Assembly: GCA_044892505.1 (NCBI GenBank) | Contig: CM097883.1 | Location: 45,570,001-45,634,000, forward strand | Length of the DNA stretch: 64,000 nt | Source: Schmidtea nova | Taxonomy: Eukaryota | Reading direction: 5' to 3' | Part shown: in pieces, positions 13,740 through 56,832 of the stretch | Position numbering within the stretch: position 1 is the stretch's first letter | Layout: every line of letters starts with the position of its first letter | Notes under the pieces: generated by a model | Seen by the model: only the letters and a program-made list of their open reading frames with translations | Told to the model about the DNA's origin: nothing | Database searches by the model: none | Made by a program: the position numbers and the translations under genes

Positions 13740-13762
<23 letters not shown>

Positions 13763-31200: not shown

Positions 31201-31266
31201 AGTTAGGCAGCAAAAAGCCGACAACATGAAAAAAATGAAGCAAACATACACACATACTCGATGCTG

Positions 31267-32452: not shown

Positions 32453-33055
32453 ATGGTCGCGTGCACTATAAAGCTAGAGGATACCATCATTCGTAGGAAA
32501 CGGCGCACCCGTTCCGTCCTCAGACCAAAGGCGAACCCGAATATCAGAGGAGAGAGCGAAGCACCCCGAAAAGTTGTCGAAGTATCACGTCGCCACTTAC
32601 GACGATGGATGAGGGCCCATATGAGTTCAGCCGCTAGCACCCCAGCTTGCGCATTTGATCTACAGTTGCGGTGGGAAGGAGATACCGATTGGGTACCCTC
32701 CTCGGATCGTATCAAGCCGGAAAATACCCGATGGTTTTATCAATTCCTAGATGAGTTAAAGCAACCCCGCTGGCTACTGAGTACCGGAATGATGTCCGGA
32801 AAAGAGCTACATCAACTCGGATACATGCTGCTAGACAGGCCTCGGTGTGGCGACACTGGGGAAGTCTTCGCCTACTCAAACGCGCCAGGAAGCGTGTCAT
32901 TAGATCAATACCCCGAGCCCAAGGATCTACGCCTCTGGGAGGTATTTATCTTTCGAGACAAGTTAAGTTGGAGCCCCGCCCCGGAGCTATACTATGAAAG
33001 TGGAATCCGTCGTGACGAGAACACGGCCGACCAGGAATTACGACCCTTCATCTAA
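32453..33055 (+). CDS. Uncharacterised LTR-encoded 'RWEG' protein
   Basis: 200-aa ORF with three diverged paralogues in the window; in-frame ATG at 32420, just after the acceptor ttttctttag (32412), is cut off by TAA 32438. Confidence 0.75.
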   Translation: MVACTIKLEDTIIRRKRRTRSVLRPKANPNIRGESEAPRKVVEVSRRHLRRWMRAHMSSAASTPACAFDLQLRWEGDTDWVPSSDRIKPENTRWFYQFLDELKQPRWLLSTGMMSGKELHQLGYMLLDRPRCGDTGEVFAYSNAPGSVSLDQYPEPKDLRLWEVFIFRDKLSWSPAPELYYESGIRRDENTADQELRPFI

Positions 33056-33246
33056 ATCGCAAGGAAACCGATCCACCGAAGGAATATTTGATGTGTATTA
33101 AAAATAAATGTATTAATTTTTGGGTTTTGTTATGTCTTTGAATGTATGAAGCGATCTGAGAGTAAAACACCTGTTTGATAATAAAGATAGTGACTGGGAG
33201 AACAGACAAACCATACATAACCCGATTAATGATACATTTTACAGAG

Positions 33247-33810
33247 ATGAGTGAACATCCAACTAGGAACTACAAACAAGAGGCAAAAGAGCATAAAGCA
33301 CGATCGCGAGTCCTAGAAAACCGCTTGCGGCAGCTAAACGAAGAGCACCAGCGAATTAAAGCCACGTGGTTCAACCCAGAGAGGGTTAAAACCATCCTGC
33401 AAGCCAGATACAGGGCAGAACGAACAATCGACGAGCAAGCTAGGGAGGTCGCCGCACTAAAGATGGAGCTGTCGAATTACTTGAGGGCATCAACCCAGGA
33501 GTTCATCACCGAGCAATTACGCCCAGTGATCAGGGCTAGCACCTTTAATCGGTGGGTGGACACAATATCGATGACAACAAGTACCCAAACGGAAATAGAA
33601 ACCATCCCGATCACAACTACCACAATATCCCCAATAATTCTGGAAGGCTCGAAACGAACAAAAAGACGGAATCGCTTGGGAGCGAAAAAGCGTAGGGAGA
33701 GACGCGCATATGCAGATCGCGTCGGAATAGAGGTAGACTTGCTCAGTGGTCTATCCGAGCAAGAACTACTAAATGTAATCCGACCCTCTGTATTGTTAAA
33801 CTATAAATAA
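33247..33810 (+). CDS. LTR-encoded coiled-coil protein with basic C-terminal (NLS/RNA-binding-like) segment
   Basis: ATG follows the acceptor ttttacag (33244); KRTKRRNRLGAKKRRERR; homologous remnants in units B and D. Confidence 0.7.
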   Translation: MSEHPTRNYKQEAKEHKARSRVLENRLRQLNEEHQRIKATWFNPERVKTILQARYRAERTIDEQAREVAALKMELSNYLRASTQEFITEQLRPVIRASTFNRWVDTISMTTSTQTEIETIPITTTTISPIILEGSKRTKRRNRLGAKKRRERRAYADRVGIEVDLLSGLSEQELLNVIRPSVLLNYK

Positions 33811-34202
33811 ATGTATAAAATGAATGAGTTGACTTGTCTTGTTTGTTTGTGGAATGTCTGAGAATCAAATATAATAAAAACCCGGATTCATTTGAAGCTG
33901 CAGATATCTAACAATTAACTTACCCTAGGACACTAGAAAGGAGCTTAAGTGGGACCGAAAGAAAGCCACAGACACCTTCTATCGGTAGTGGTGGACCCGT
34001 GAATAAACAAGGGAATAGTAGCCGAAAGGTTGCTCACCTGCCTTGTCATTTCACAACGTTGACACAGCACCAACATGATGAGTAGTTAGGGATACATCAT
34101 GGGTGTCAGCGGGGGAAATGTTTTTATGTTGGCGAGATCACCCTAACGTATAAAATCATAAGGATCTCAGTTGTCAATCCAACCAACACACCAGCATAAA
34201 TT

Positions 34203-34757: not shown

Positions 34758-35216
34758 ATGGAGAACAAAATAAAAGAAATGCAAACGTTTTTCGAGACAA
34801 ACAACGAAACAGTGGAGACCATAACGAGAAAGTTAAAACGACTCGAGGTAGGAGGATACCACGAACCGACAAACAACACAGAAAGAGCTGAAATGATAAT
34901 GAGCATAAACGAGAATAAGAACACAGTGGATACAGCAACACGATATCAGTGGTATAGAGAAAGATTAAACAACCCTGAGATGAATATCGAGTGCCACAGG
35001 CTAGAGCAACAGTTAACAACAAAACACGATGAGTGGATAAGAATAACAACAGAACATACGAGACAATATCTGACGTGTTATATCTGTGAAATGAACAAAA
35101 TACAGATAATGTTGTTGCCATGTGGGCATTTTCGATTCTGTAATGACTGTAAAATAAATGAACGATGTCCTATGTGCAACCTTCCCGTATCCGAGAAAAT
35201 AACAGTGTACTTGTAA
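34758..35216 (+). CDS. Coiled-coil + C-terminal IAP/MDM2-type RING E3 ligase-like protein
   Basis: CYICEMNKIQIMLLPCGHFRFCNDC....CPMC....I.VYL* at the extreme C-terminus. Confidence 0.8.
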   Translation: MENKIKEMQTFFETNNETVETITRKLKRLEVGGYHEPTNNTERAEMIMSINENKNTVDTATRYQWYRERLNNPEMNIECHRLEQQLTTKHDEWIRITTEHTRQYLTCYICEMNKIQIMLLPCGHFRFCNDCKINERCPMCNLPVSEKITVYL

Positions 35217-37370: not shown

Positions 37371-38241
37371 AGAGATGTCAGTTGAATTAAAGGTGAATAG
37401 AGATGAGAATTGAAATGAAGTAGTAAACGTAGTGTGAATAGGAGATAAAGTGAGTAGTCGAAAAACAGAGTAGTCGACAGATAAGGGGAAATTAGAACTC
37501 AGAGCCAGAGAAGCCTGAGAAAAAGTAAAGGGGATAATAAGAGCGCTGAGCGACAAAGTAATTGGGGAACTGGGGAAAAGTAATTGGTGTATTTGATAAA
37601 GAATAGATAATTGATGCGACTGCATAGATAATTTAAATAGACTTAAAATCAAGGGAAATGGGAAAAATGGGGATCTTCATGAATTATGACTACACCCGTG
37701 AGAGGGACGAGAAACACGATAACGGGGACGTATCGTGTAAGTGATTATTTGTTTTAAGGAAACAAATCAATCAAGCAATTCAAAGCAATCTAGCAGTCAG
37801 AGCAATCAAAAGAAACAAATCAAAGAAGAAGCAAAGCAAAAGCGGAGTAGAAAAGCAGTTGAGAATATAAGCAGTTGAGGAATAGACAAAATTGAGGGAC
37901 GAGAAACAAGATCAGGTATAATACCAATCTTAACGGAAGCAGAAAGAAAAGCAGCGAAAAGGACAAGAACAGGTAACAAGCCTAAGCAACAAAAGAACAA
38001 ACAAGTAGAGATCAGCGATAATTCGAGTAATAAAGAGAATCAAGAAGAAACCCCAGAAGATCTAGAAGTACAAAACGAAGTAGAGACGATAGACAGTGAA
38101 CTAGTCAGGGAAAACAGAACAAGAAGCGAATCAAGAGATAACGAAACAGAGAGTAGTGAAGAAGAAGAGTCGAATTCAGAAACAAGTGGTGAACTAGAAG
38201 CAAAGAAAACTAGTACAGTATTCCAAGATAGTGGAATCGGG

Positions 38242-41200
38242 ATGAGTGATCACAGAGAGGATCTAAGAGAAAAATTCAAGGGCGAACCATTCAATGGAGA
38301 CGCCAGTAGATTGGACACGTTCCTGAAGGAATTTGGCATATTCGTGGATATATGCGGATGGAGTGCAGAAACGTTAGCGAATCGAATCCCGCTATACTTG
38401 AAAGATAGCGCATTGGATCTGTATATTGAGAAGAGATCGGGAAGTAATCCACCCAGAACGTGGGAAGCAATCAAGGAGTTCTTCCAACAGACGTTTGGGA
38501 TAAATAAAGTGTTGAACGAAGCGTTCGATGAGTTCTCAGCAAGAAAACAGAGGAGAAACGAGTCAAATGCAGTGTACGCAAGCGAATTAAGAAAGTTGGC
38601 GAAACTGGCATTCAATAGAGGAAGCCCAGTAGACGAAGAATTGATGACAGCGTTATTCGTACGAGGTCTCAGGAGACCTGACATCAGAGCACAAGTGGGA
38701 TGCAAGGGATGTAAAACAGTAGATGAAGCGTTGGAAGCAGCCAACCTATTCGAATTGCATATGGCAATGAATGACATGAGAATTACGGCGGTAATGGGAA
38801 AAACGACAGAAGATGAAGAACAAGGAAAAAGAAACATGAATCAAAGTATCCCCCATTCGCAGAGATTGTTCAAAGAACCGCCAGCGAGGAAAAATAATGG
38901 ATATATCACAGTAAACACGAATGGAGGAAACAGTTACAATGACAGGCAGAATAGGCAATGTCAGACGTGTGGAAAAAACGGACATTGGCAACAAGATTGT
39001 TTTCAGAATGTAGCCTGCAAACTGTGTGGACAAAAAGGTCACTCAGAGAATCGATGTTATGGGAAAACGTGTTACACATGTGGAAAAACCGGACACATGT
39101 CAAAAGACTGTAATCAACAGAGAAGTTGGTCAAACAGTGGAAATAGACCGAATTACGGGAATCGACCAAGCTATGGGAATCAAGGCCAACAACGGAACAA
39201 CCCAAACAGCAGTGCAAACGAAGCTAGTATGAAAGAAGCTAAGTTGAGACAGGAGGTATCCAGATTACACGAGATAATCGAAAGCATGGCAAAGGGAAGC
39301 CAACAAGCTGCTCAACCAAAGATAAACATGATCCAGTTAATAGAAGCTGAGGCCGAAAGAGAAAATAGAGAAAGCCAACAGAAACATAATCAAGAATGGG
39401 CTAGAATACGACGAGAAGAAGAACAAGTCAGACAACAACGGTTACAACAGTTAAAGAAGGGAAATCCAAGGATCAACATGATGCGAGCAATGATGGAAGA
39501 AAAGCAGCAGGATGAGTCAGACGAGTTGGAAGTTAAAGAGAAAAGAAACGAAGAGCAGAAACAAGAAGAAGTGAATCAGGAAGTAGAAGCCGCAGAGCAG
39601 AATCAAAAAGTTGAAGAAGTAGAAAAAGAAACGAATCAAGAAGAAGAAGTGAGAATCAAACAAAGAGGAATGTTAGTGATCATGCCGAATGATCACGTGT
39701 GGCGATTCAAATACGATGTAAAAGAAGAAGTGGGGAAATTATTCAATAAAGTAAATAAGATGATTCCGGGAGTGACGAAACTGCCCAGAGAAGCATTCCT
39801 ACAAACAGAGGATTTGCCAGAAGTAAAATTGAAGATGACTGACACATGGGAAGATATGGGAGTAACAGAGACGAAAATAAACGTGATGATCATCAGAGAG
39901 GTGGAACCGGAGAAAATTCCCCCACCAGTGAAACACCAAACTCGGATCAGTCGAATATTCAAGGGAAAAATAAGACGAAGACGGTTGGAAGAAATAGATG
40001 AGTTAGAGAAAAGAATGGGAAAAGCTGAAGTAACGGGAAACGAAAGTGAACTAACACAGGAAGTTAGCAAAAACGAAGCGAGACCAATCGCGCATATTGG
40101 GATGCTGAGACACCCAAGACAAGAGTTGTCAGATGAAGAAGACGACAGCGAAGTTAGCAGTCTGGCAGGAGACATGCTAAAGGAACCGGAAAATGAGGAC
40201 AAAAAGATGGAAGTAGTCGAGACAATAGAAACAGTGTCGGTAAAGGAAGACGAAATTCAGAAGCTGATGGATAACGCGTTGGAAGTAATCCATAACGAGG
40301 AGTTTATCGACAGTAAACGACACCGAAAGTTCATACGAGCAGTATGGCAAATGAAGTATAAAGAGTGGTTACAAGAAAGAGAAGTGAGAATAATACAAGA
40401 ATTTATTGAGAAGCTTCTAAAAGAACCACTCAACGAATACATAATACAGATATGGATAAACGAGTGTTCACCGAGAATCTGGATAAGGAATCCAATGACG
40501 GATGGAATTTACAGATGGGTTGAAGACAGATTGGGAAGCTCGTACAAAGACAAGTTCATCTATTCGGAAAACGGATTGGTGAAAAAGGGAACGCATATGA
40601 TAGACACAGGCATCTGGCCAGGAGAAATAACAACGTTATCAATATGCAACACCAAAAAGGAAGAGAATCTACAAGGAATCGTCAAAGAAGCGAATACGTG
40701 TTACGAGATGAGAATAAAACCTCAGTTGATAGAGGCAAAAGAGAGAATCTTGGCAGAGAATTTGAATACGATGATAGAACAGATCATCCAACAAATCAAG
40801 AAACATCGAAAGGAATTGACGAAAAGCGAGTATGAGAATTTGAAGCAATGTATCGAGAACATACGAGATACAAGTCAAACGAGACATTCAAATTTCAAGA
40901 CGGACAAGCTAATTGCAAAGATGGGAAAAGAAATGTTTAAAAGAGGGGAAATATCAGATCTGAGGATTACCGTGAGATTACCGAACGAAGAAACAAGACA
41001 AATTGAGGTAATACCAGATAGTAAAGTGGGAGAAATAGTAGATGTCATCAATGAGACGATATTACAACGAGAACGGGAAGATGAATTCGAGGACGACATT
41101 GCGATAAAATACAAAGAACACCTACTGAATGAACGTGACGAAAGACGAGCGTATAAAATCGGCATATGGGATAATTATCAGACAATACATGTCATCAGAA

Positions 41201-44200
41201 TGGATGATGTGCCAAGAGCAACACCAAGAGATGAGGAAAGGAAAAAGAAACGACGAGAGGACGTTATGCGTAAGCTGAGGCAGATAGTAGAAATTTATCG
41301 GAACTGGCAGATGAAGCCAGAATGGGAGACAATATTGGGAGAATTGGATCTTAACAGACGACGATTGACGCCAGTAGAGAAACAATGGGATAACAAAGAG
41401 AAATGTTGGAAAGTGAAAAGAGGCGTGTATGAAGAAGATCCGGAAGGAGAAGACAGATATGAACGGAATACGAAACGGATATGTATGGTAACAAGGAGGA
41501 TATTACCAACGGACTTAGACGGACCAGAAACTGCAGTAATATGGGCAGAATTGGAGAAACAGAAAACGAGTGAATTGATCGAGCTGTTGAGAGGAAATAC
41601 TCGGGGAAAAAGACAAACAATAAAAGGCTTAGCACAATTCATAATCACAAATGGGGAAGACATAACGAACTTGAGAAAAGTAGCTAAAGCGATAGCAGAA
41701 TACAAGAGAGTAAATGAGTGGTGTCCGGAGCAACTAGACGATGTAATAAAAAAGTGGAGAAACAAAGAGTTTGCGGAAGAAACGCCACAGAAAATACATT
41801 TGAGGATAATGTATCCGAATCAAAGAAAAGAAGAGTTTTGGGTGATGCTAACGGAAAAAGTGAAAAGTGTTAAAGAGAAACTGATGTACGAACTACCATT
41901 CCACCTGCAACATCAAGGACGATCGTTGGATAACAATTTGGAAATCTGGCTGACACCAGTGCAATTGGATCTAATGAATACGCTAACAGTGGCACAGATA
42001 GTAGGTCAACCACTGAAGTTTAAAGAGGAAAAGAAAACGAAAGGAAGCATGAGTACACCAAGTCCGAAGAAGTCAACAATGACCCCAGGAACAAGTTCGG
42101 GACAAACAAGGACAACGCCAGTAAAAATCAGAGAGGGAACACCGCCAGAAGCGTATGACGTAGATGAGATACTAACAGACAGTGATGAAGCGATAGAAGA
42201 ATTAACAAAGTTGACTCAAAAACCAACGGCGAATATTTTTGACAGAATAATAGAGATGCCAATAACGTCACCAGCAGAAATCGACGATCAAGGAGTGGAA
42301 CAGGAGGTAGTCATAGAAATGGTAAACGATTCGGAAGACGAGCAAGAACAACCACAGTTTACTCAAGAAATGGAAAGATGGTTAGAACAACGAGCAAACG
42401 AAGGAAGGGATGTTACAGAAGAAACAGGAAGAGCAACGAGATTTGTAGAAACCGGAACTGGAATGGAAAAACGACCAAGAGGAAGACCAAAGATAGATCC
42501 AGCAACAACAATCCCAAAAACAAGGGAAGAAAGGAGACAAGAGCAATGGGAAATTTGCTTGAAGAAACTGGATAAAATCGCAGAGATCCGAGGCAAAGAG
42601 GAGAATCAAGTTTGTCAAGGAGAAGAATGGCTCACCAAAACGATAATGGATGTGTTAGCGATAATTGACCCAGAATTAAAGAATTTGTGGCGGATAAACG
42701 AACCCAGTACAAAGGCAAGGATGCTGCACAATGCGATAACACCAATTATGCCAGAATTAATAAAAGCGAAAACAAAATCAAATCATCTAGATTGGCAAGG
42801 AACCACGATGTTAATAAAAAGGCTACTTAACGGAGCAGAAACGGACAGCAAATATATGGTAGCAATCTCGTATACGATATACAATTTGCTAACGCTAAGC
42901 CGAGGAAGTCCGAAGTCAAGTCCGATGGGAAGACATATTAAAAATACGGCGATGATTATCGAGAAAGAAATTGAACCATATATCCTCAGAAAAGGAGGAT
43001 GGGAAAAGTTCATAAAAGAGAACCAGACAAAAGAGGGTTCAAACGTGATGAGAAAGAAACTTGAAGGAGTATTGAGAGAAATGGAGAATAGACAAACGAT
43101 GCAAGAAAACGGAAGATCGACGTTGAATTTAAACTCGATAATCATGATGATGTTAGTATGGTTGTTAAGCACGGAAGGTGTAACAACATTTGAGGTATTT
43201 GATTGTGATCAAATGAAGTTAGGAGAAAAGTACTCATTGAGAGGTACGGAGCAATGCAAAGATGCAACTCCAGTAGAATTGAAAGAGATCAAAAAGGAAC
43301 AATGGTACCACTTGTATCAAGAGGCAGAACTAATAAAGACAATGGTGAATGAATGCAAAGTGCAAAAGACGAGATTCGCATTCTATTGTGGGAGAGGACA
43401 TTATTCAGCAATTGTCATGCCAGGAACGGAAAGAGAACCAATCGTGTTGCAAGGGGAAGACTGCGAAGCATTATTTAAACATGGAGAAGTAACAACAAGA
43501 GATAAAATCAAGATAAAAGGAAAACCAGGAATGATGTTACAGCAGACGTATTATGTAGCAGGACGAATTACGGGAGGAGAAGGATATTGTCAAGGGGAAA
43601 CCTACCCAATATTCGGAGCACCTGCAACCAACTTAGTGGTGATGGATACGTACATAGTCGAACTGAAAAGCTACGAAGCATTCTTCGAACCGACAACCGG
43701 AGAAATGAAAACGTTATCCATGTGTAAAATTGACAGAAGCATGTGTCAAACGGGAATGTCAACATTGGTGTATAAACCGAAAGTGAACGAATGTCAATTA
43801 CAACTGCTACAAGGAGCAAAGTTCGACGAAATTCAAGGAAAAACCTTCCAAGAAGAAGACGATGATGACAAAGCTAGAGCAAAACATCTCAAAGAAGCGT
43901 TAGAGAACAAAAGACAACTGAAATCAGAGCAGAGAGAAAAACGGATAGAGATGAGAACCACACCAACAGTGTTGATAACCACAAACCAGGATGTGGGAAT
44001 GAGATTCATAAAAGGGAAAGCAACCCTTAAGTGCAGTACAACAGTATACGAAACGAACTATCCAGGAATATACGTGTCAAAGCAGGAAGTACCGAATGCG
44101 AAACCCAAGATCGACACAATGGATATCAAGCTACACTTGTATGTGAATAATAAAATGGACTTCTTATTCCATAGAGGACAAGCCTCGTTGCAAAAAGTGT

Positions 44201-47200
44201 ACTATGATCTGATAAACAACGATTGTATACTGAACCGGGAAATATTAAAGACAAAGTTGGCCGTAGCGATTACGAATCCAGATAGCGCGATGCCATTATT
44301 ACCACTGAGAGAAGGACATTTCGGAAGAGTGGTCGGAGAAGCAATGTACGTATACATTTGCGAAAAGACACACGCATCGCTAGCAGCAACAACGCAGTTG
44401 AAACCTGGACAATGTACAAACGAACTAGAAATCGATTATAAAGGAAAAGTACGATACGTTCAACCGGTGACGAGAATCATCAATCCACCAGGGTTTGAAC
44501 CAAATCCATTCAACTGTAGTAACGCGTACGGACCGCTTTATCAGAAACCAGATGGTAAATGGGTTATGTTCCCAGGAAGAACCGAAGTATTAGCACCAAG
44601 AGAATTTGAGCTAATGCAGTTGTCAAAAGATAGACAGTTCAGCGACGTAGATGTCTCAAACAACGGAATCTATAGTCCAAAAGATTTAGAAGCAGCAAGG
44701 CAGAATATATTATTCCCGGCAAGAAGAGAAGCATTACTGTCAAATATCGTAACGATAACGGGAGGAACGAATTATCGAGAAGGACCGAATTACGAACTGC
44801 TGTTGTCACCGGCACATTTCAAGAAAGCCACAGAAAACATGATGAAGGCAATGTGGGGAAGATTCCTGATATTTGGACAAATGATGGCTGGAATACTGGG
44901 TGTTATATTGATAATACAAATCGTCAGGGTGATAATAACGCAAATGTTAGCGTGTTTTGATATCTACAAGAGAGAGAAGAAAGTGAATTGGAAAATGGTA
45001 GTAGGGTTTTTACCATTTCTTGCGAAAACAATGGTGTTACACGGACACTCAAAAGACATACATCGAATAAAGAGGTTGTTGAAGATACTTGCAAAAATGA
45101 AAGGAACTAACGAAGATGTCGGAAGGAAATTCAAAAAGATAATGCAAGATGAACAAGCAAGGCGACAACTAAAGAAAGAAAGGAAAGGATTATGGGAAAG
45201 AGTGAGAGGATATCGAACGCAAGATGACTCAAGCAATGATGATGATGACGATGACGATCGAGGAGGACAAGCGAATATAAACCAGATTCCACAGTATAAC
45301 GAAAAGAGCACAGTTGAGAATTGGAGATACAGCGCTCCACCTCAATCAATGTACAACGAACCTATATACAAAGCGAAGCCGAATATGATGCAGATGATGC
45401 CGATGACAAGTAGATACCCGATAATTCCAGAAGACTGCAAAGTAAAACGAGGTGGAAGTGTAAACTCGTTAGAAGACACGCACACGATAGCAGTTATGTC
45501 CACAAATATGGGACCCATCTTAACAACAACCGTAGAAATAAACGGAAGAGAAATTGAAGCTATGATCGATACAGGCGCGAATATTTCGGCGATCGACATT
45601 AATTATATACCAGAGAAAAATCAAGGAGAAATCGAGAAGACGAATGTGCATGTAATCGCGTGCAGTCAAGAGACAGTAGAAGTAGCCGGAAGATGGTTTG
45701 TAAAAATTAAGCATCGAGGTGCAGAAATCAACACGTACATCGCTGTAATACCATCGCTGAGTGTACCATGTATTATTGGAACTGACCTGATGCCAGACCT
45801 GTTCAAGGAAATCGTAATTGATCTAGGAGCAATGAAGTTAAAAGATAGGACAGGGAAAATCTGCAGAATGAAAGTTAAAGTGGCAAGTGCGGAACAAATA
45901 GTAGTGCCAGCGAGGCACGAAATGATGTGCTACGTCAAGATCGATTCGACAATAAAAGGAGATATGGTATTCGAACCAAGTAAGAAGTTCGAAGCAAAGA
46001 AAGAATTACCAATGGCAAGAGAATTGGTTACGATAAACCAAGAAGGTGAGATACCAATTAATCTGGTAAATTTCGACGAAGAGGACAAGATAATATACGA
46101 GAATGAGAATTTGGGTAAATTGACACCCATGTCCGAAATCGAAATACCAGACAAGAACGAGAAAAGCAAAGACGAATTACCATGGAAAATCGACAGTGTG
46201 TTGTTAGACGAACGACAAAAAGAACAGTTACAGAAACTGTTGATGGAATATAAAGATATATTCGCAACATCAGATCTAGATTTGGGAACATGTGATGTAA
46301 CATTGCACACGATACCGTTGACGGACGAAACGCCAATAGCATTAAGACCATATAAACTGGCAGAAGCTCAAAAAGCAGTGGCAGAAGAAGAAGTACAAAA
46401 GATGTTAGATGCAGAAGTCATCGAACCTAGTTGCTCACCCTGGCAATTCCCAGTGGTGATGGTGAAAAAGAAGGATGGAACTCAGAGATTCTGTATCGAT
46501 TACAGACGATTAAATGCCGTTACGAAAAGAGATACGTACCCACTGCCAGACATAAACGAAATGTTGTTGACGTTACAAGGAGCAGCCTATTTCACGTCAC
46601 TGGATTTAAAGAGCGGATATTGGCAGATCAAAATGAAAGACGAGGATAAAGAGAAGACAGCATTTACAATCGGACGAGATCTGTACCAATTCAAGAAAAT
46701 GCCGTTTGGGTTAACAAACGCGCCAGCATCATTCCAGAGATGCATGAATTTCGTAACACATGGCATAAAACAATGCATGGTGTACATTGACGATCTATTG
46801 ATCTACTCCGCAACATTCGAAGATCACTTGCAAGACATCAGAAACGTGTTCGTGAAATTAAGGCAATGGAAACTGAAATTGAAGCCGTCAAAGTGCGATT
46901 GGGCAAAAGAAAAAGTGACATTCTTAGGTCACATTGTGTCAGCGAAAGGAAAAGAACCAGATCCAAGGAATATCGAAAAAGTCAAAGAATGTCCACCACC
47001 AAAGACAGTGACTCAAATACAAGAATTTTTGGGATTGTGTGGATATTATCGAAAGTTTATCAAGGACTATGCAGGAATATCAAAGCCAATGCAAGAATTG
47101 GTAAGACAAGACGTGTCGTTTGTGTGGGGAGAAGAGCAACAAGCAGCATTTGAAACATTACGAGATAAGCTGATTACAGCACCAATATTGGCCCATCCAG

Positions 47201-50200
47201 ACTTTAAGAAGCCATTTCTGTTGGCAACAGACGCAAGTGGATATGCAGCAGGAGCAGTACTAGGCCAATTTGACGAAGAAGGCAAGGAAAGAGTAATCGG
47301 ATATTACAGTCGAACATTCAGAAAGCATGAAAAGAATTACTCAGTCACGGAAAGAGAAGCCTATGCGATAATATTGGCAATCAAGCATTTCAAGTACCTA
47401 TTGTGGGGTCATGAAATATATATCACGACGGATCATCAACCATTGGTATGGTTAGGCCAACATAAAGAATCATCAAGTAGATTGATGCGTTGGGCGATGC
47501 AGTTACAAGAATACTCGCCATTCATAAAGTTTAAAGCAGGAAAAGCAAATGCGAACGCGGATTGCATGTCAAGGTTTACATTTCCAGAATTGGTGAACCT
47601 AAACGCTCTGAAAATATGTGCATTAATAGCGGAAGATTTGGATTTCAGCGAACTAAGGAAAGATCAACTCGAAGACGAGGAGTTGGGAATGATCAGCAAG
47701 TATTTGAAAGAAAGGGAAATAGAAATATTCGACAAGAACCAAACGTTGCGCGAACATATGCAGAAATATCAACATAGATATGTGATGGAAAAAGGATGGT
47801 TATTGATACAAGATGGAGAACGGAGATTGATGTGCTTACCTGCGAATAGACGAAAGGAAATCATGACTCAATATCATGACGGAAAATTAGGCGGACATAT
47901 GTCAGCGAAAAAGACAATCGGGAGATTGAGACAAAAGTATTTTTGGCCAACCATGGAAGATGATGTGAAAGAATGGATAAAGAACTGCTTAACCTGTGCA
48001 ACAAGAAAGAACGTCGGAACGAAGTGGAAAACACCACTAAAACCTATGCCAATACCTGCAGAACCAATGGCAACAATAGCAATGGACGTAGTTGGGCCAT
48101 TGCCGGAAAGTTTGAAGGGAAATCAATACATATTAGTAGTCACGGACTATCTAACAAAGTTCCCAGAAGCATTCGCAATACCAGATCAAAAAGCGAAAAC
48201 AGTCGCGAGAATATTGGTGGAAGAGATATGCTGCAGATACGGAACACCCAAGAAAATCCTAACGGATCAAGGAACAAATTTCATGAGTGAAATATTAGAC
48301 GAAGTTACGAATTACTTCCGAATCGCAAAATTACGAACATCCCCATACCATCCACAAACGAACGGACAAACAGAAAGGTTCAATGGAACATTGATACGCA
48401 TGTTGTCAAATTACGTCAGCAAACACCAGACTGACTGGGACGAGTATATAAACTTGTGTTTAATGGCATACAGAATGTCAATACATGCGGCAACAAAGCT
48501 AAGTCCATTCCAACTGATGTACGGAAGAGACTGCAACTTACCGATCGATTTAGAATACCAACCACCATTATCACAGTACATGGAGGTTGACGATTACGTG
48601 ACGAAGTTCAAAGAAAGAATGCAAGAGATCTGGAAAACGGCGGAACTGAACATCAAGTTCTATCAAGAAAGTTATAAGGATCTACATGATCAGAAAAGGA
48701 ACGTGAAAGCACATGATTTAAAAGTTGGAGATTGGGTGATAATTGAGACACCAGAGATAATACCCGGTACGGTCAAGAAACTCCAACGACTCGGCAAAGG
48801 GCCATATGAAATAACAACAGTAAACGAAAATAATGTGCGAGTACGATTGGTGAACAATCCATTGGTAAGACCAATATACGTGAATGCATGTCGATGCAAG
48901 AAAATACCAAAGACAGCAACTCTATCACCAGAGAAACGGGTAATGACAAGATCACAGACGGCGAGAATCAGTATGTTGCGAGTACAACAAAAGCCGCAAA
49001 CAAGTCTAGAAGACAATCGAAGAGAAGCAATAGACATCAAAGAACTGGCAAAGAGGACCAGAGAAATCATACCAGAATGGAAATGTTGGTTCGATTTCAA
49101 TATACTGTCAGAAGTTCGAAAGAATGTAATGGAGTATGCGAAGGATAGAACAGCACACCCAATAACAAGAACGCTGCTAGAGGAAATCCCTCAAACATTG
49201 AATCTACAAGACAAAGACGGTAACACCGCGTTGCACAATGCAATCAAGCACAGTGGGAACGAAAAAGTGAAAGAGATCGTAGAGATGATACTCGAAGGTG
49301 GAGGAGAAATTGACAAAATAAATTGGGAAGGAATCACTCCACTTATGATGATGACGATTCATGGAAGAAACGACGAGATAATCAAGCTATTCGGAAACAC
49401 CAGATCGAATTGGATGACAAAAGATAAAGAAGGACGAACGTTCTTGAATCATGCAATCGATAGAGCAAATCACCGAATACTGAAGTATATCACGGAAAAT
49501 GCCACGTGGGAAATCGACGAACTAACTAGAGGATCTATCATGAAACAAGCAATCGGGGTAAAGAATAGTAAAACCTGGAGAATATTGCTAAAGTGGAAAC
49601 GACCAGAAGGAGATTCGTGGGTCATGGATTGTAATGAAGTGTTCATAAAGGGAGAAAATGCGCTACTGAAACATTTATTAGAAGTAACATACGATCCAAA
49701 AACACTTGCAGTATTAATAGCAAGAGATACTCTACGAGTCAGCGAGAACCCAAGAGAATACAAGCTGGAAGACAGAAAGAAAGAACTATTCGGATTAATC
49801 AAGAAATGGTGCGATAAGCAATGGAATCCGGATATGAGCTTCGAACATTTCTATGACATCCAAAAACAACACAAAGAAATAAGCAAGCGATATAAAGAGC
49901 TGATAGAAGCATTGAAGTATGGACAATTCTTCAGACAAGCAGTGTATCAAGACCAACGAATGAAACAGATGCAAACGCGAATAAGAAGCAAAGCAGTGTT
50001 GTTCAATGCAAAAGCCGATTATCAAGAGAGATTAAACGCAATCGTGGCTAAAGCACAGGAGAAATTATCGGAATTCAAGGAGAATAAAAATTCGTTGGAA
50101 ATACTAGGAACAATTACAGAGAAAGTGCACAGATATGCAGAAGGGGATTATAACGAGAGTGACATAGAAACGATCAAGAACCAAATGCCAGTAGCATTCC

Positions 50201-53121
50201 TATTATCAAAGGATGGGAGATTGCCGATACACTGGGCATTACGTCGAAAGAAAGAAAACGAAGTGCTAGAAATAACGAAAGCAATGGTCAAATGCGAAGC
50301 GGACATGAATACGGTTGATGATAACGGAGATACAATCATGATAATCGCGGCAAGGAAGAAGACGAACTGCAAAGTGCTAAACGAGTTATACGCAGCAGGA
50401 ACAAAAATCGAAGGGAAGAATGGAAAGAACAATTCCATCATAGATATCGCAATACAGTGGAACAACTTCGAGATGATCAAGTTCATAAAGTCCATCAAGA
50501 GACATGAGGACATAGAATACCTGGCAAATAACGTAAAGAATTTCAGTCTAACAGTAATGATACACGACGTAGAGAAAACAAGAGCATTACTAACATGGGT
50601 GAATCCGATCAACAAGGAACCAGTGTTCAAGATCAATGACCATATGGAACAGAATCAGAATTGGTGTATCAGAAGCGCGTTATTAAGACATAAAAAGCCA
50701 GAGATAGTAGAAGAATTCTTGAAGAGAAGAGATTTGAAGTTCACGAACAATCCAAAGGAACCCGAACGAACGGGAAGATGGAAAGACTTGTTCAGAAAAT
50801 ATGTGAATGAATGGACAAATGCCAAAGGAGCAATCAAGCAAAGTAGACTAGAAGACAGGGAACCATCCAAGGAGATGGAAATACGTGAATTCGAGTCTAG
50901 CGCACTCGCGGTTCAAGCGTATGAAAGATTGATTGAAGAAATTAATGTCGAGGACGACATTTCGAAAGGACCAGGGGGTGGTTACAGAGACTTCGACGAC
51001 AAAAGTAACAACGAAAAGAACAACGAAGACAATGACAACAAAAGAACAGAAGATAATGAAAAAGAAAGACAAGAAGAACCAAAGCCAACGAGAAACGACA
51101 AAAAGGAAGAAGCCGAAGAACGAGAAAACAGCGGAACAAAAGATGAACGTACAAACTATGGAAAACGAACAGGAAGTCTACTTTGGAGACCGGAAATGTT
51201 GTGCATTGCGATATTGTTAACAATCATCGGACAAGGAGAAGCCAAGAAACAATACGTCACGCTAGAGATAATTAGAGGAAATGAAGTATACGAAAGAATA
51301 TGCTGGAAAGAAAATCTGAAGAAAAACGATACGCTGAAGTGTATGTTGTCAGACTTGAAGCGAGACGTCATCCAAATCAAAGGGTTGGAGAAAGAAAAGT
51401 CATACATAATATGCGCAGTAAAGCAGAGAGGAGAACCAAAAGCACCTCAAGTAACTGCATGTCAACTATACAAAGCAACAGAAGCGCTGAAGATACAGAA
51501 ATGGATTGAGAAAAGAAGCGAAGAGACAACGAGAAGAACAGAAGTGGAACCAGAGAAAGGGGAGAATCAAACCGAAGCAGAAGAGGGAATCAGAAACCGA
51601 ACAGAGAAAGAAAGAATAACCAAAAATCCAGCGGGCAAATTAACATTCCAACCAGAATTGATATGTGTAGCATTAATATTAATCCTCATTAAGAGAATCA
51701 TGGAGGACATAGATATCAGCGTGATGACGTTAGTAAACATCCAAGATCAACGAACAACGAATGGAAGATGTTGGGGACGAAACAATGAAGTAATTGGAAT
51801 CAGCGAAACAAGAGAAAGTCGGGAAGCAGAGACAAATGAAGAAATCGAAATAACAGAAATAGAGACAGATAAAAAATGTGAACTATGTCTCATGGAAAAG
51901 GCAGCAAACGGGAACAGACCAGGAACAAGCGAGTGTAAAGTGTTCCAAGCAAAGGAGATAATTGAGTTCCCAAAAAGAAAGAAACAAGATCAAGAAATGA
52001 TTGCGAATGAGGTAGTAACAGTGGAGATAAAAAACATGGGTCGGAGAACAATTGGGATGTGTTGGAGAAAATACATCGGAGTATCGACCAGTCACGTAAT
52101 ACCGCAATGCAGGACGAGAGAACGAGGAATCCCGTTTCAACTAAATGGATTCGAAGTCGGACAAGCCTACGAAATTTGCGTAATCCGAAGAATAAGAGAA
52201 GTAATACAAAGAAGCCTGGAGTGCAAACTGTACAAGACGCCAGAGCAAATTAACGGAACAAGAACGATCGAAATGGGAGGAAGTCGACAGAGGAAAAGAA
52301 AGTCAAGAAGAACCACGACAACCAACAGTCAAGAAACTCAACAGACAACAACGGAAAGGACGTCAATAAAAAACGAACCGGAATCAACGACTCTGATAAT
52401 ATGGAAGATCCATAAAAAGGTCCTAGAAATCTGTTGGACATTAATGCCAAACAGTATGAGAGAGTCTCCACGAAACTGTCAAAAGACATCAAATGACAAA
52501 AGGGAAATAATCGAGGTAGAAATGAGGAGGTTGAAAACAAACGCGGAATACGAAGTGTGTGCAATCGAAGAAGTAGACGCACAAGGAAATCAACAAGAAA
52601 GGTGCGAAACCTATTACACGCCAAGGAACATAACGATAAAAGGGGGAACCCGCAAGTTAGAATTCCGAGAATTGAGTCAGAAGAGAGAACAAAACGAGAA
52701 GGAAGAAACAATACCAAATCAACAAGAAAAATGGGAACCAGAGAAAGTGATCGAAGAAGTCAGACGGAGACAACAACAATACGAACAATGGGAAGCAGAA
52801 TGGAAAGGTCAATATGGCGTGATGATAAACCAAAGTGAAACTCCGAAGATGAGCATTGGGAAAACAATAATGGGATTAATCAGCATGGGAGTATTCATAG
52901 GGTGTATACCGCTGATAACGATCATGATAGTATGTTGGAGATATGGCATGAGAAATAAGACCATAGCAGTAAAGTGGCCGGACGTAAAGGTCACGAATTA
53001 CAACATAAAACTACCAAAGGAAGTACGAGAAGAACTGAAAAGACGATCAAAACACGAAGAGATGTGGGTACAGATCGAAGACGAAGAACTGTACGAAGGA
53101 AAACCAGTGATAGTTGTATAG
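38242..53121 (+). CDS. gag-pol: 4959-aa polyprotein Gag-ZnK3-UBL2-BCL2-Env-PR-RT-RH-IN-ANK-FN3-like-TM
   Basis: CCHC x3 (38959-39110); IDTGA (45568); YIDD (46783); ATDASG (47221); HHCC, MDVVGP and LSPFQLMYGR integrase; ANK (DKDGNTALHNA, EGITPLM, DGRLPIHWA); BH2-like YILRKGGWEKF (42979); glycoprotein 43130-45050. Confidence 0.95.
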   Translation: MSDHREDLREKFKGEPFNGDASRLDTFLKEFGIFVDICGWSAETLANRIPLYLKDSALDLYIEKRSGSNPPRTWEAIKEFFQQTFGINKVLNEAFDEFSARKQRRNESNAVYASELRKLAKLAFNRGSPVDEELMTALFVRGLRRPDIRAQVGCKGCKTVDEALEAANLFELHMAMNDMRITAVMGKTTEDEEQGKRNMNQSIPHSQRLFKEPPARKNNGYITVNTNGGNSYNDRQNRQCQTCGKNGHWQQDCFQNVACKLCGQKGHSENRCYGKTCYTCGKTGHMSKDCNQQRSWSNSGNRPNYGNRPSYGNQGQQRNNPNSSANEASMKEAKLRQEVSRLHEIIESMAKGSQQAAQPKINMIQLIEAEAERENRESQQKHNQEWARIRREEEQVRQQRLQQLKKGNPRINMMRAMMEEKQQDESDELEVKEKRNEEQKQEEVNQEVEAAEQNQKVEEVEKETNQEEEVRIKQRGMLVIMPNDHVWRFKYDVKEEVGKLFNKVNKMIPGVTKLPREAFLQTEDLPEVKLKMTDTWEDMGVTETKINVMIIREVEPEKIPPPVKHQTRISRIFKGKIRRRRLEEIDELEKRMGKAEVTGNESELTQEVSKNEARPIAHIGMLRHPRQELSDEEDDSEVSSLAGDMLKEPENEDKKMEVVETIETVSVKEDEIQKLMDNALEVIHNEEFIDSKRHRKFIRAVWQMKYKEWLQEREVRIIQEFIEKLLKEPLNEYIIQIWINECSPRIWIRNPMTDGIYRWVEDRLGSSYKDKFIYSENGLVKKGTHMIDTGIWPGEITTLSICNTKKEENLQGIVKEANTCYEMRIKPQLIEAKERILAENLNTMIEQIIQQIKKHRKELTKSEYENLKQCIENIRDTSQTRHSNFKTDKLIAKMGKEMFKRGEISDLRITVRLPNEETRQIEVIPDSKVGEIVDVINETILQREREDEFEDDIAIKYKEHLLNERDERRAYKIGIWDNYQTIHVIRMDDVPRATPRDEERKKKRREDVMRKLRQIVEIYRNWQMKPEWETILGELDLNRRRLTPVEKQWDNKEKCWKVKRGVYEEDPEGEDRYERNTKRICMVTRRILPTDLDGPETAVIWAELEKQKTSELIELLRGNTRGKRQTIKGLAQFIITNGEDITNLRKVAKAIAEYKRVNEWCPEQLDDVIKKWRNKEFAEETPQKIHLRIMYPNQRKEEFWVMLTEKVKSVKEKLMYELPFHLQHQGRSLDNNLEIWLTPVQLDLMNTLTVAQIVGQPLKFKEEKKTKGSMSTPSPKKSTMTPGTSSGQTRTTPVKIREGTPPEAYDVDEILTDSDEAIEELTKLTQKPTANIFDRIIEMPITSPAEIDDQGVEQEVVIEMVNDSEDEQEQPQFTQEMERWLEQRANEGRDVTEETGRATRFVETGTGMEKRPRGRPKIDPATTIPKTREERRQEQWEICLKKLDKIAEIRGKEENQVCQGEEWLTKTIMDVLAIIDPELKNLWRINEPSTKARMLHNAITPIMPELIKAKTKSNHLDWQGTTMLIKRLLNGAETDSKYMVAISYTIYNLLTLSRGSPKSSPMGRHIKNTAMIIEKEIEPYILRKGGWEKFIKENQTKEGSNVMRKKLEGVLREMENRQTMQENGRSTLNLNSIIMMMLVWLLSTEGVTTFEVFDCDQMKLGEKYSLRGTEQCKDATPVELKEIKKEQWYHLYQEAELIKTMVNECKVQKTRFAFYCGRGHYSAIVMPGTEREPIVLQGEDCEALFKHGEVTTRDKIKIKGKPGMMLQQTYYVAGRITGGEGYCQGETYPIFGAPATNLVVMDTYIVELKSYEAFFEPTTGEMKTLSMCKIDRSMCQTGMSTLVYKPKVNECQLQLLQGAKFDEIQGKTFQEEDDDDKARAKHLKEALENKRQLKSEQREKRIEMRTTPTVLITTNQDVGMRFIKGKATLKCSTTVYETNYPGIYVSKQEVPNAKPKIDTMDIKLHLYVNNKMDFLFHRGQASLQKVYYDLINNDCILNREILKTKLAVAITNPDSAMPLLPLREGHFGRVVGEAMYVYICEKTHASLAATTQLKPGQCTNELEIDYKGKVRYVQPVTRIINPPGFEPNPFNCSNAYGPLYQKPDGKWVMFPGRTEVLAPREFELMQLSKDRQFSDVDVSNNGIYSPKDLEAARQNILFPARREALLSNIVTITGGTNYREGPNYELLLSPAHFKKATENMMKAMWGRFLIFGQMMAGILGVILIIQIVRVIITQMLACFDIYKREKKVNWKMVVGFLPFLAKTMVLHGHSKDIHRIKRLLKILAKMKGTNEDVGRKFKKIMQDEQARRQLKKERKGLWERVRGYRTQDDSSNDDDDDDDRGGQANINQIPQYNEKSTVENWRYSAPPQSMYNEPIYKAKPNMMQMMPMTSRYPIIPEDCKVKRGGSVNSLEDTHTIAVMSTNMGPILTTTVEINGREIEAMIDTGANISAIDINYIPEKNQGEIEKTNVHVIACSQETVEVAGRWFVKIKHRGAEINTYIAVIPSLSVPCIIGTDLMPDLFKEIVIDLGAMKLKDRTGKICRMKVKVASAEQIVVPARHEMMCYVKIDSTIKGDMVFEPSKKFEAKKELPMARELVTINQEGEIPINLVNFDEEDKIIYENENLGKLTPMSEIEIPDKNEKSKDELPWKIDSVLLDERQKEQLQKLLMEYKDIFATSDLDLGTCDVTLHTIPLTDETPIALRPYKLAEAQKAVAEEEVQKMLDAEVIEPSCSPWQFPVVMVKKKDGTQRFCIDYRRLNAVTKRDTYPLPDINEMLLTLQGAAYFTSLDLKSGYWQIKMKDEDKEKTAFTIGRDLYQFKKMPFGLTNAPASFQRCMNFVTHGIKQCMVYIDDLLIYSATFEDHLQDIRNVFVKLRQWKLKLKPSKCDWAKEKVTFLGHIVSAKGKEPDPRNIEKVKECPPPKTVTQIQEFLGLCGYYRKFIKDYAGISKPMQELVRQDVSFVWGEEQQAAFETLRDKLITAPILAHPDFKKPFLLATDASGYAAGAVLGQFDEEGKERVIGYYSRTFRKHEKNYSVTEREAYAIILAIKHFKYLLWGHEIYITTDHQPLVWLGQHKESSSRLMRWAMQLQEYSPFIKFKAGKANANADCMSRFTFPELVNLNALKICALIAEDLDFSELRKDQLEDEELGMISKYLKEREIEIFDKNQTLREHMQKYQHRYVMEKGWLLIQDGERRLMCLPANRRKEIMTQYHDGKLGGHMSAKKTIGRLRQKYFWPTMEDDVKEWIKNCLTCATRKNVGTKWKTPLKPMPIPAEPMATIAMDVVGPLPESLKGNQYILVVTDYLTKFPEAFAIPDQKAKTVARILVEEICCRYGTPKKILTDQGTNFMSEILDEVTNYFRIAKLRTSPYHPQTNGQTERFNGTLIRMLSNYVSKHQTDWDEYINLCLMAYRMSIHAATKLSPFQLMYGRDCNLPIDLEYQPPLSQYMEVDDYVTKFKERMQEIWKTAELNIKFYQESYKDLHDQKRNVKAHDLKVGDWVIIETPEIIPGTVKKLQRLGKGPYEITTVNENNVRVRLVNNPLVRPIYVNACRCKKIPKTATLSPEKRVMTRSQTARISMLRVQQKPQTSLEDNRREAIDIKELAKRTREIIPEWKCWFDFNILSEVRKNVMEYAKDRTAHPITRTLLEEIPQTLNLQDKDGNTALHNAIKHSGNEKVKEIVEMILEGGGEIDKINWEGITPLMMMTIHGRNDEIIKLFGNTRSNWMTKDKEGRTFLNHAIDRANHRILKYITENATWEIDELTRGSIMKQAIGVKNSKTWRILLKWKRPEGDSWVMDCNEVFIKGENALLKHLLEVTYDPKTLAVLIARDTLRVSENPREYKLEDRKKELFGLIKKWCDKQWNPDMSFEHFYDIQKQHKEISKRYKELIEALKYGQFFRQAVYQDQRMKQMQTRIRSKAVLFNAKADYQERLNAIVAKAQEKLSEFKENKNSLEILGTITEKVHRYAEGDYNESDIETIKNQMPVAFLLSKDGRLPIHWALRRKKENEVLEITKAMVKCEADMNTVDDNGDTIMIIAARKKTNCKVLNELYAAGTKIEGKNGKNNSIIDIAIQWNNFEMIKFIKSIKRHEDIEYLANNVKNFSLTVMIHDVEKTRALLTWVNPINKEPVFKINDHMEQNQNWCIRSALLRHKKPEIVEEFLKRRDLKFTNNPKEPERTGRWKDLFRKYVNEWTNAKGAIKQSRLEDREPSKEMEIREFESSALAVQAYERLIEEINVEDDISKGPGGGYRDFDDKSNNEKNNEDNDNKRTEDNEKERQEEPKPTRNDKKEEAEERENSGTKDERTNYGKRTGSLLWRPEMLCIAILLTIIGQGEAKKQYVTLEIIRGNEVYERICWKENLKKNDTLKCMLSDLKRDVIQIKGLEKEKSYIICAVKQRGEPKAPQVTACQLYKATEALKIQKWIEKRSEETTRRTEVEPEKGENQTEAEEGIRNRTEKERITKNPAGKLTFQPELICVALILILIKRIMEDIDISVMTLVNIQDQRTTNGRCWGRNNEVIGISETRESREAETNEEIEITEIETDKKCELCLMEKAANGNRPGTSECKVFQAKEIIEFPKRKKQDQEMIANEVVTVEIKNMGRRTIGMCWRKYIGVSTSHVIPQCRTRERGIPFQLNGFEVGQAYEICVIRRIREVIQRSLECKLYKTPEQINGTRTIEMGGSRQRKRKSRRTTTTNSQETQQTTTERTSIKNEPESTTLIIWKIHKKVLEICWTLMPNSMRESPRNCQKTSNDKREIIEVEMRRLKTNAEYEVCAIEEVDAQGNQQERCETYYTPRNITIKGGTRKLEFRELSQKREQNEKEETIPNQQEKWEPEKVIEEVRRRQQQYEQWEAEWKGQYGVMINQSETPKMSIGKTIMGLISMGVFIGCIPLITIMIVCWRYGMRNKTIAVKWPDVKVTNYNIKLPKEVREELKRRSKHEEMWVQIEDEELYEGKPVIVV

Positions 53122-53595: not shown

Positions 53596-53684
53596 TGAAT
53601 AAGCGGAAAATTGTGTAAATACGTGTAAATAAAGAACCAGAAAAATCAAAAATATGGGGAAATTGATGTAAATATTGTTGTAGA

Positions 53685-55097
53685 ATGAGAGCAGAAAGCG
53701 AAGCAGATTACCAAACAATCGAGATTCTAAGAGGAGAGAATCGACAATGGGGAGTAAATGTGACGTGTGTAAAGTGTAAAAATTTACTGTTAAAACCGAG
53801 ACAAACCGAATGTGGTTGCAGGATGTGCACCAAATGTATACTACAAATAATCAGTGAAAGTGAGACAAGAAAGTGTCCAGAGTGTGAAGATAAACTACTA
53901 ATCAACGAGACGAAACCAGATAAAGCAATACAAAAGGAGATCTGGAAGATAAAAACAGAATGTATAAACCAACCATGTGAGTGGAAAGGTCAAATAATCG
54001 AGCTAAGACAACATCTGGAGAAATGCAAAAATAAGAAAACGATATGTGAAAAGTGTCAACAGACGATAACCATCAAGCAGTCGAAAAAGCACAAGGATGA
54101 GTGCAAAGCAGAGATAGTAGAGTGTCAATACTGCAAACAAAGAGAGACGAGAGAAGTAATCGAAACAGAGCATCTCAACGTAGCAGAAGAGAAAGTGTGC
54201 GGAAAATTCAGAGGAATTTGTCCAAGTAATTGTGGAGCCAGAGAAGAGGTGATGTTGAAAGAACATTGGGAACAGTGCGAATCAAGACCAAGAAGGTGCG
54301 TATGGAGTAAACAAGGATGTTTAGTAAAGAAAACGAGCAAAGAAATGAAAGAGCATTTAGAAACAGAGACAGTACAACACGCAGAGATGCTAACAGAAAA
54401 TTTAAACGGAATGGAACAAACCATACAGAAGCTGGGAAAAGAAATCGAATCTCAGAGAATAATGACGGAGTTATTACTAGAAACAAGAGAGCAATTCGAG
54501 CTCACCAGAGAGAAAATGATGGAGAAAATCAAAGTCATAGAGACATTGGTAAAAGAAGTAAACGTGCGACATCAAATGTGGGTGCGAGATGCAGAGGATA
54601 TCGAGAGTTTACCTGTTGCACCATATATATGGAAAATCAAGAATTTCAACGAAAAGTTCGCAGCAGCAAAAGCAGGAAGTCAAGTGTCGGTAACAAGTCC
54701 ACCATTCTATCTGTGGAAAAATGGATACAAAGTCCGGATGAGAATTTATCCAAATGGAGATGGATCAGGAAAGGAAACGCATGTGTCATTATTCTTTGCG
54801 TTGTGTAAAGGTGGTTACGACGACATATTAGAATGGCCACTAGAAACAAAGGCTATAATGAGAGTGAAAAACTCGAAAGAAACAATAGCGAGAGTATTCA
54901 AAATTGATGGTAAGCACGAAGCTTACAAAAGACCAACCACAGAATGTTCATTAGCGACTGGAGAACCAAAATTCATACCACACCAAACAATGTGGGAAAT
55001 GTTGTACGACGACAACTTATATGTAGAGTTGGAGATCGAAAAGAAAACAAGTACAACAGTGATGAACACGAAGTCAACGAAAGGATGGTTAGAGTAG
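53685..55097 (+). CDS. traf: Full-length TRAF-family protein (RING, TRAF zinc fingers, coiled coil, MATH)
   Basis: CVKC..LL.KPRQTECGCRMC..C...CPEC; YIWKIKNF; SPPFY...GYKVRMRIYPNGDGSGKETHVSLFF; DDILEWP. Confidence 0.93.
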   Translation: MRAESEADYQTIEILRGENRQWGVNVTCVKCKNLLLKPRQTECGCRMCTKCILQIISESETRKCPECEDKLLINETKPDKAIQKEIWKIKTECINQPCEWKGQIIELRQHLEKCKNKKTICEKCQQTITIKQSKKHKDECKAEIVECQYCKQRETREVIETEHLNVAEEKVCGKFRGICPSNCGAREEVMLKEHWEQCESRPRRCVWSKQGCLVKKTSKEMKEHLETETVQHAEMLTENLNGMEQTIQKLGKEIESQRIMTELLLETREQFELTREKMMEKIKVIETLVKEVNVRHQMWVRDAEDIESLPVAPYIWKIKNFNEKFAAAKAGSQVSVTSPPFYLWKNGYKVRMRIYPNGDGSGKETHVSLFFALCKGGYDDILEWPLETKAIMRVKNSKETIARVFKIDGKHEAYKRPTTECSLATGEPKFIPHQTMWEMLYDDNLYVELEIEKKTSTTVMNTKSTKGWLE

Positions 55098-56347: not shown

Positions 56348-56515
56348 AAAGAGGCGAAAAATCCGTGTGTAAAAATGTACAAATCGATGTAACAGGTATT
56401 AATCAGTAGAATAATCAGAAATGAACTGGCTCAAAACCCTACCAATCCTAACGATTATGTTAACTACAACAACAATGAACTGTTCAACAACCGAAATCCA
56501 AAGAACCCTGTCAAA

Positions 56516-56832
56516 TGAGAATCAAATATAATAAAAACCCGGATTCATTTGAAGCTGCAGATATCTAACAATTAACTTACCCTAGGACACTAGAAAGGAG
56601 CTTAAGTGGGACCGAAAGAAAGCCACAGACACCTTCTATCGGTAGTGGTGGACCCGTGAATAAACAAGGGAATAGTAGCCGAAAGGTTGCTCACCTGCCT
56701 TGTCATTTCACAACGTTGACACAGCACCAACATGATGAGTAGTTAGGGATACATCATGGGTGTCAGCGGGGGAAATGTTTTTATGTTGGCGAGATCACCC
56801 TAACGTATAAAATCATAAGGATCTCAGTTGTC
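56516..56832 (+). repeat. 3' LTR segment (317 bp, apparently identical to 33859-34175), cut by gap
   Basis: tgagaatcaaatataataaaaacccgg...ggatctcagttgtc at both sites. Confidence 0.93.

Follow-up and report, generated by a model that had tools for sequence, protein, structure and literature searches.

A selectively maintained, full-length TRAF gene in the accessory cassette of Burro-like Gypsy elements of Schmidtea nova

Does a complete TRAF gene lying inside a retroelement belong to that element as maintained cargo, and what might it do there? We examined a stretch of 64,000 nucleotides of the Schmidtea nova genome (GCA_044892505.1, contig CM097883.1, positions 45,570,001 to 45,634,000 of the forward strand), referred to here as the window. 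A sequence-only reading had described an intact, intronless TRAF gene in it and had proposed that the gene was captured by retrocopying, was retained, and belongs to a class of elements that could have fed the expansion of host TRAF genes. Burro1/GYPSM1 and a Burro-like element of Dugesia tigrina are giant Gypsy LTR elements with a polyprotein of ∼5,000 aa, and Burro elements have an env between gag and pol, ankyrins, and MATH_TRAF_C, RING and BIR cargo; in the D. tigrina element the MATH domain lies on an accessory ORF, and meddling with apoptosis was suggested (PMC6431247). MATH/TRAF cargo in Burro is therefore already published, and the general idea is not new.

The TRAF frame and its carrier

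The TRAF frame translates without a stop into 470 aa and forms a separate ORF behind pol (Table 1). Above the Pfam cut-offs, MATH_2 (E 3e-27) and TRAF-mep_MATH were recognized in the MATH region, whose best PDB sequence matches were TRAF5/3/1/2 (E 1e-25 to 1e-27). The best Pfam model for the RING (E 2.5e-4) and Sina_ZnF at residues 192 to 234 (E 2e-5) were below cut-off; the RING has RING-like spacing and matched the N termini of TRAF6/5/2 in a PDB sequence search. The His of the C3HC4 pattern is a Cys here and in the majority of the flatworm host TRAFs that were compared, while five outgroup TRAFs have the His. Between RING and coiled coil the zinc-finger region shows conserved Cys/His columns, and in the TRAF of a related family (B, below) zf-TRAF exceeded the Pfam cut-off (E 6e-10). 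The AlphaFold model (mean pLDDT 74.7, pTM 0.35) comprises the RING and zinc fingers, a single continuous helix at 229 to 306 and a beta-sandwich at 314 to 451; because of the pTM of 0.35, the orientation of the domains in it is unreliable. All 29 Foldseek hits listed were TRAF1-6 structures. Open frame, Pfam matches, model and Foldseek hits confirm an intronless, full-length TRAF frame with a RING-like N terminus, zinc fingers, coiled coil and MATH domain. On the MATH surface, NSSS/KHEA and ASGCP/ATGEP differ in the comparison with vertebrate TRAF3/5, and binding partners may therefore differ. The A-rich codon style attributed to the element was likewise confirmed: base composition of the TRAF (A 0.42, T 0.19) equals that of pol (A 0.41, T 0.18), unlike host TRAFs (A 0.32 to 0.40, T 0.26 to 0.34).

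Table 1. Features of the Burro-like element in the window (window coordinates; TRAF domains in residues)
Feature	Position	Strand	Remarks
5' LTR	30913..34197	+	∼3.3 kb; first ∼20 bases under N; matches both ends of other copies
TATA-like box and predicted donor AG/GTAATT	31294..31407	+	TATA 31294, GT 31402
LTR ORFs	32420-33055 and 33247-33810		no Pfam match; AG-ATG-type junctions in front
ORF ending in IAP-type RING, no BIR	34758..35216	+	152 aa; Pfam zf-C3HC4_3, E 3e-9
Polyprotein	37879..53121	+	5080-codon open frame
Accessory ORF, 116 aa	53245..53595	+	always directly 5' of TRAF; homologs in other families
Spacer, 89 nt	53596..53684	+	three TGTAHATA, one AATAAA, predicted acceptor TGTAG one base before ATG
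TRAF, full-length	53685..55097	+	RING 28-67, zinc fingers ∼90-230, coiled coil 229-306, MATH 314-451
Coiled-coil accessory ORF, 386 aa	55187..56347	+	homologs in other families
Hydrophobic-N-terminus ORF, start only	56421..56523	+	cut here by deletion; 174 aa in 6/6 other copies
3' LTR remnant	56516..56832	+	LTR 3' end, rest under N; 100% identical to 33859-34175

Judged by its layout, which is that of planarian Burro elements, the carrier is a Burro-like Gypsy element of ∼29 kb. Pfam orders its polyprotein as gag zinc knuckle, fusion glycoprotein, protease, RT, RNase H, integrase and ankyrin repeats, the env standing in frame between gag and pol (PF24664, E 1e-72; ankyrin Ank_2, E 3e-18). Six other copies share the 3' cassette of pol, small ORF, TRAF, coiled-coil ORF, 174-aa ORF and LTR; in the window copy the final accessory ORF and the bulk of the 3' LTR are lost to a deletion at ∼56523. 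One full copy measures 29.5 kb with 3.3-kb LTRs. The LTRs of other copies run TG...CA, and 4-bp target duplications were readable in four of four complete LTR pairs. LTRs of copies are up to 23% different though internal regions are 95% alike. The second LTR ORF has a basic C terminus, and a 19-bp tandem array occupies 35900 to 36600 in the 5' untranslated part.

Compared by description only, Burro1 and the D. tigrina element resemble the window element as giant Gypsy elements with an in-frame env, ankyrins and MATH/RING cargo. The published text describes a MATH domain only, in ORF1 or an upstream ORF, whereas here a fixed cassette behind pol contains a whole TRAF. In Burro1, MATH, BIR and BCL2 are part of ORF1 or accompany it, whereas no MATH, BIR or BCL2 was matched in the window polyprotein by Pfam, the only search behind this negative (the Burro paper used profile-profile search). 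In the window element's own family Pfam found no BIR, only the RING ORF. Our literature search found nothing on a whole element TRAF, its selection, its single origin or its retention without RT; Grohme 2018 and Lee 2026 lay outside that search and may describe the whole TRAF, and the accessible part of PMC11410931 does not mention TRAF.

Several other features lie elsewhere in the window. Positions 1 to 9861 belong to a Helitron (Helitron_like_N, PIF1 helicase); inside it are STPR repeats and tandem duplications of 1.5 to 2.3 kb that are nearly identical. An inverted repeat at 13751 to 18478, possibly a Penelope-like element, has arms of 1,942 nt that are 100% identical and RT-like frames (RVT_1, E 8e-8); its end sequence is found again as a 73-nt palindrome at 57202 to 57353, just after the Burro-like element, and also beside several host TRAF loci. 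Related Burro-type LTR pieces lie at 10519 to 10953, 22871 to 23326 and 26105 to 26669, a second IAP-type RING frame at 59119 to 59634 and an unrelated Gypsy pol fragment at 61898 to 63839.

Copy number, selection and related families

We refer to the window element's family as A. Its copies were chosen by RT, not by TRAF, as the first 40 on the plus strand among 104 RT matches. All 40 carry TRAF sequence (39 whole, 1 truncated), which bears out that the gene is carried by the element. Exact 20-base tags, whose counts are lower bounds, matched 119 times for TRAF and 116 times for RT, and reversed controls 0 times. In a TRAF protein search, 90 of 3352 candidates were scored and all were 94 to 100% identical. 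The copies analyzed were the best-scoring ones and therefore lean young.

Across 41 family A sequences the TRAF has a dN of 0.019, a dS of 0.20 and a dN/dS of 0.097 (bootstrap CI 0.072 to 0.123), and a maximum-likelihood codon model gave an omega of 0.14. By part, dN/dS is 0.048 for the RING, 0.13 for the zinc fingers, 0.08 for the coiled coil and 0.11 for the MATH domain. Elsewhere in the element it is 0.021 for RT-RNase H (a figure biased low by the RT-based choice of copies), 0.018 for integrase, 0.085 for the ankyrin region, 0.195 for the pol tail, 0.05 for the 116-aa accessory ORF and 0.14 for the first 320 codons of the 386-aa coiled-coil ORF. Twenty of 24 TRAF cysteines are invariant in 40 sequences; stops occur in 4 of the 41 family A sequences and frameshifts in none. 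Since LTR pairs are 99.8 to 99.9% identical in five of six copies (the sixth has no 5' LTR at the expected position), replicating lineages account for most of the 5% by which copies differ. TRAF changes common to several copies have a dN/dS of 0.09 and those found in a single copy 0.35, the contrast expected if selection works in replicating lineages. Retention under purifying selection is thus borne out by a dN/dS of 0.097 at a dS of 0.20. The two outcomes named beforehand as contrary to retention, presence in this copy alone and a dN/dS near 1, were both examined, and neither was found.

Searches with a host TRAF, a nested neighbor and a distant protein exposed five further dispersed families (B to F) with the same cassette, 35 to 53% identical and together well over 1,000 copies. 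TRAF identity to the window protein is 47% in B, 53% in C, 35% in D, 51% in E and 46% in F. Tags, again lower bounds, matched 92 times for C and 1,080 times for D (another D tag only 135 times), giving at least 1,291 TRAF tag matches over A, C and D; B gave ten matches in the search. dN/dS is 0.18 in B (10 loci), 0.19 in C (23 loci) and 0.14 in D (14 loci, 5 of them broken). RT is present in three of three C copies and in the upstream stretches of one of two E and zero of two F copies. Family B is without RT and integrase in both copies that have an internal region, a third being cut by another insertion, and family D has no gag, env, RT or integrase in three of three copies examined; TRAF is kept in all of these RT-less copies (B, 2/2; D, 3/3). 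The low dN/dS of family D may be partly inherited from a putative autonomous helper. This family encodes a 1036-aa protease-ankyrin ORF and, directly behind the TRAF, a 389-aa BIR-RING ORF whose best PDB match is cIAP1 (BIRC2; E 3e-14), and LTR pairs are 99.9% identical in two of three copies. The family, examined at L194/L195, L197/L198 and L200/L201, is young and very high-copy, with several hydrophobic-leader ORFs, a RING and a coiled-coil ORF. Identities among A to D rank alike for TRAF, gag, env and protease; one ankyrin segment ranks differently, a pattern that points to some recombination among these families.

Origin of the element TRAF and the host expansion

In a tree with host genes, named triclad proteins and animal outgroups, the element TRAFs form one clade (99/96), with support of 91 under a mixture model and 96/93 with E and F added. 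This clade is nested in a flatworm-type TRAF group (98/93; 99; 100/99), where the outgroup occupies one side of a branch in the mixture-model and E/F trees, not in the 99/96 tree, and consists of TRAF2/3-like proteins, with TRAF4 and TRAF6 of other animals left out. The phylogeny with host TRAFs that had been called for thus places a single element clade inside the flatworm TRAF radiation. Its sister group is two unnamed proteins (one of them P0061), to which no match above 37% was found in this genome; a look for the surroundings of P0061 turned up nothing. A profile scan of metagenomes yielded 59 loci. Pol, small-ORF and coiled-coil neighbors were absent from all of them, and one had a RING match. 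Word-based protein searches returned 5 and 16 distant TRAFs but no relatives of the element.

One old capture from a flatworm gene, whose base composition would have turned element-like afterwards, is the simplest reading of these sequences. Of the proposed capture by retrocopying, the flatworm-host origin stands with the tree. The missing introns cannot be counted in favor of retrocopying, since the nearest host TRAFs are single-exon in their coding regions too. Six host loci (L049, L050, L053, L059, L143 and L148) run from RING to MATH in one frame of 448 to 486 codons. An RNA route of capture is plausible for an LTR element. One of the six, L049, was tried as a gene between an LTR pair and rejected, as its flanks share no repeat.

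Triclad host TRAF2-like genes (D. japonica TRAF2-like A and Dendrocoelum lacteum TRAF-2/-4/-5, and Smed-TRAF-2A/B according to the accessible part of PMC7586133) have the same architecture in 450 to 490 aa, usually with the same Cys for His in the RING, and their coding regions are single-exon in this genome. Relative to these, the element TRAF is only 27 to 33% identical, forms a separate clade, has the element's base composition, and is mobile and multi-copy.

TRAF expansion in planarians has been reported, in a study with 99 MATH transcripts (PMC6109357, as far as its accessible text goes). Did the elements seed it? In a MATH search 150 of 2393 candidates were scored, of which the top 57 were not family A, and 49 of these 57 top non-element matches fall within a single 50-Mb region (G000 C2, 405 to 455 Mb). 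A large host family of TRAF/MATH genes is clustered there, exact tandem copies among them; one locus, L062, is a tandem MATH-MATH frame. The host sample comprised the top 30 plus three more, from which identical or near-identical neighbors were dropped, so that it represents best-scoring loci only. At eight host loci checked, the RING and MATH matches are 0.6 to 2.7 kb apart or lie in different frames, consistent with introns. In the MATH tree, 14 of 15 apparently intron-containing host genes form a clade of their own (100/98), and the elements group separately with the two unnamed proteins (98/98).

Seeding by elements draws some support from numbers (three families give at least 1,291 element tag matches, compared with 57 top non-element MATH matches) and from some host TRAFs that are single-exon and near Burro fragments. 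In addition, a single clade uniting the elements with the intron-containing host group was not rejected by an AU test (p 0.059). Yet none of the 23 sampled host TRAF/MATH genes nests among element TRAFs; the single-exon host genes group with D. japonica (70%) and D. lacteum (45%) proteins, have host base composition and at no locus have cassette neighbors; and the host matches are concentrated in one region. We consider it improbable that elements seeded the expansion. The suggestion that they were its source is unsupported in the sampled genes, in which the reported expansion looks like host tandem duplication.

Predicted expression signals, proposed function and alternatives

The TATA-like box and predicted donor are present in the window and in four of four other 5' LTRs, despite a differing leader between them. 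The spacer before TRAF diverges by 1.5% among copies (against a dS of 0.20) and, in each of the six families, ends T-rich with TAG 1 to 3 bases from the ATG. In family A this acceptor layout was found in 34 of 40 copies (five were missed by the anchor, one was spurious); as a chance level, 44 of 363 ATGs inside pol have YAG within 2 nt. The acceptor rule is not universal, an AG adjoining the assigned ATG being absent at several other accessory ORFs of B and C. TGTAHATA, which we take to fit CFIm/poly(A) sites and also Pumilio sites, occurs six times in 374 nt of spacer, a count reached by 0 of 10,000 shuffles, and not once in 15 kb of pol. Spliced accessory mRNAs are thus predicted by the conserved AG-ATG junctions and by the abundance of TGTAHATA in the spacers. 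The simplest model would be cis-splicing from the LTR donor; alternatively, a spliced leader could be added in trans, as is known from flatworms. Two of the four listed runs, of unrecorded kind, over the full 3' end covered LTR and spacers and contained no GT-AG joint, a result that is undiagnostic for expression.

The TRAF is an intact, selected, fixed cargo gene. We propose, with a probability of roughly 0.6, that it was captured once, is expressed from its own spliced mRNA and acts with IAP-type RING proteins to keep the expressing cell alive. A short LTR leader would be spliced to the AG just 5' of each accessory ATG, with 3'-end signals in the spacers. As general TRAF biology suggests, the protein would trimerize through coiled coil and MATH domain, bind receptor or adaptor peptides, and scaffold or perform survival-favoring ubiquitination together with the element's IAP-type RING proteins. 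TRAFs and cIAPs cooperate. The link to IAP ligases that had been drawn for the window gene holds circumstantially in family D, where the BIR-RING ORF lies directly behind the TRAF, and falls short in the window's own family, which is without BIR. Loss of a planarian host TRAF leads to lesions and lysis (PMC7586133, accessible part). The BIR-RING protein of Burro1 (B-IAP) is reported to shield stem cells against apoptosis (Lee et al. 2026, Dev Cell, as cited in the available portion of PMC13465017); it is likewise a cell-death regulator captured by an element of this kind, but a different gene, and as far as that portion describes it, family D resembles its element in having a BIR-RING ORF, here beside a TRAF. 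Burro1 RNA is enriched in the intestine and rises on smedwi-2 knockdown, according to the accessible section of PMC8532177.

Other readings give the same gene a different role. A neutral passenger, recently captured and still awaiting decay, would fit the young insertions, but a dN/dS of 0.10 at a dS of 0.20 and TRAFs 35 to 77% identical across six families leave it virtually no room, and we count it as refuted. The main rival is a decoy that joins host trimers or blocks binding sites and damps innate immunity as viral mimics do; the 28 to 33% identity to host TRAFs, the altered MATH surface motifs, the viral-type fusion glycoprotein of the element and the induction of planarian TRAF genes in a TBK1-dependent response (PMC13563047, in the part accessible) are all in keeping with it. 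A pure decoy would more likely drop its RING, however, whereas here no part of the protein is more conserved than the RING (dN/dS 0.048), which makes antagonism unlikely in our judgment. Still less probable is a role in the particle, with the TRAF ubiquitinating or scaffolding element proteins in assembly, trafficking or release rather than in host signaling: family A has one TRAF tag per RT tag and an env-like domain, but family D retains TRAF and IAP where gag, env, RT and integrase are gone (three of three copies examined). The conserved, intact RING and the adjacent IAP in family D make a pro-survival ubiquitin scaffold the best reading.

A bolder form of the survival proposal, which we hold only tentatively and think rather doubtful, is that the entire TRAF-IAP survival module is expressed as separately spliced accessory mRNAs, that a family without RT and integrase reached more than 1,000 copies through better survival of the cells or animals expressing the module, that element genes contribute a real share of stem-cell TRAF activity, and that some of the transcripts annotated as "planarian TRAF" come from elements.

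What had been a domain label on an element map becomes a gene put to the test. It is whole, old and under selection, and even families that have shed their replication enzymes keep it. Beside the reported Burro IAP it offers a second concrete target for asking whether elements buy cell survival. The mobile and the clustered host TRAF expansions are now separated, and genome or transcript counts could mix both.
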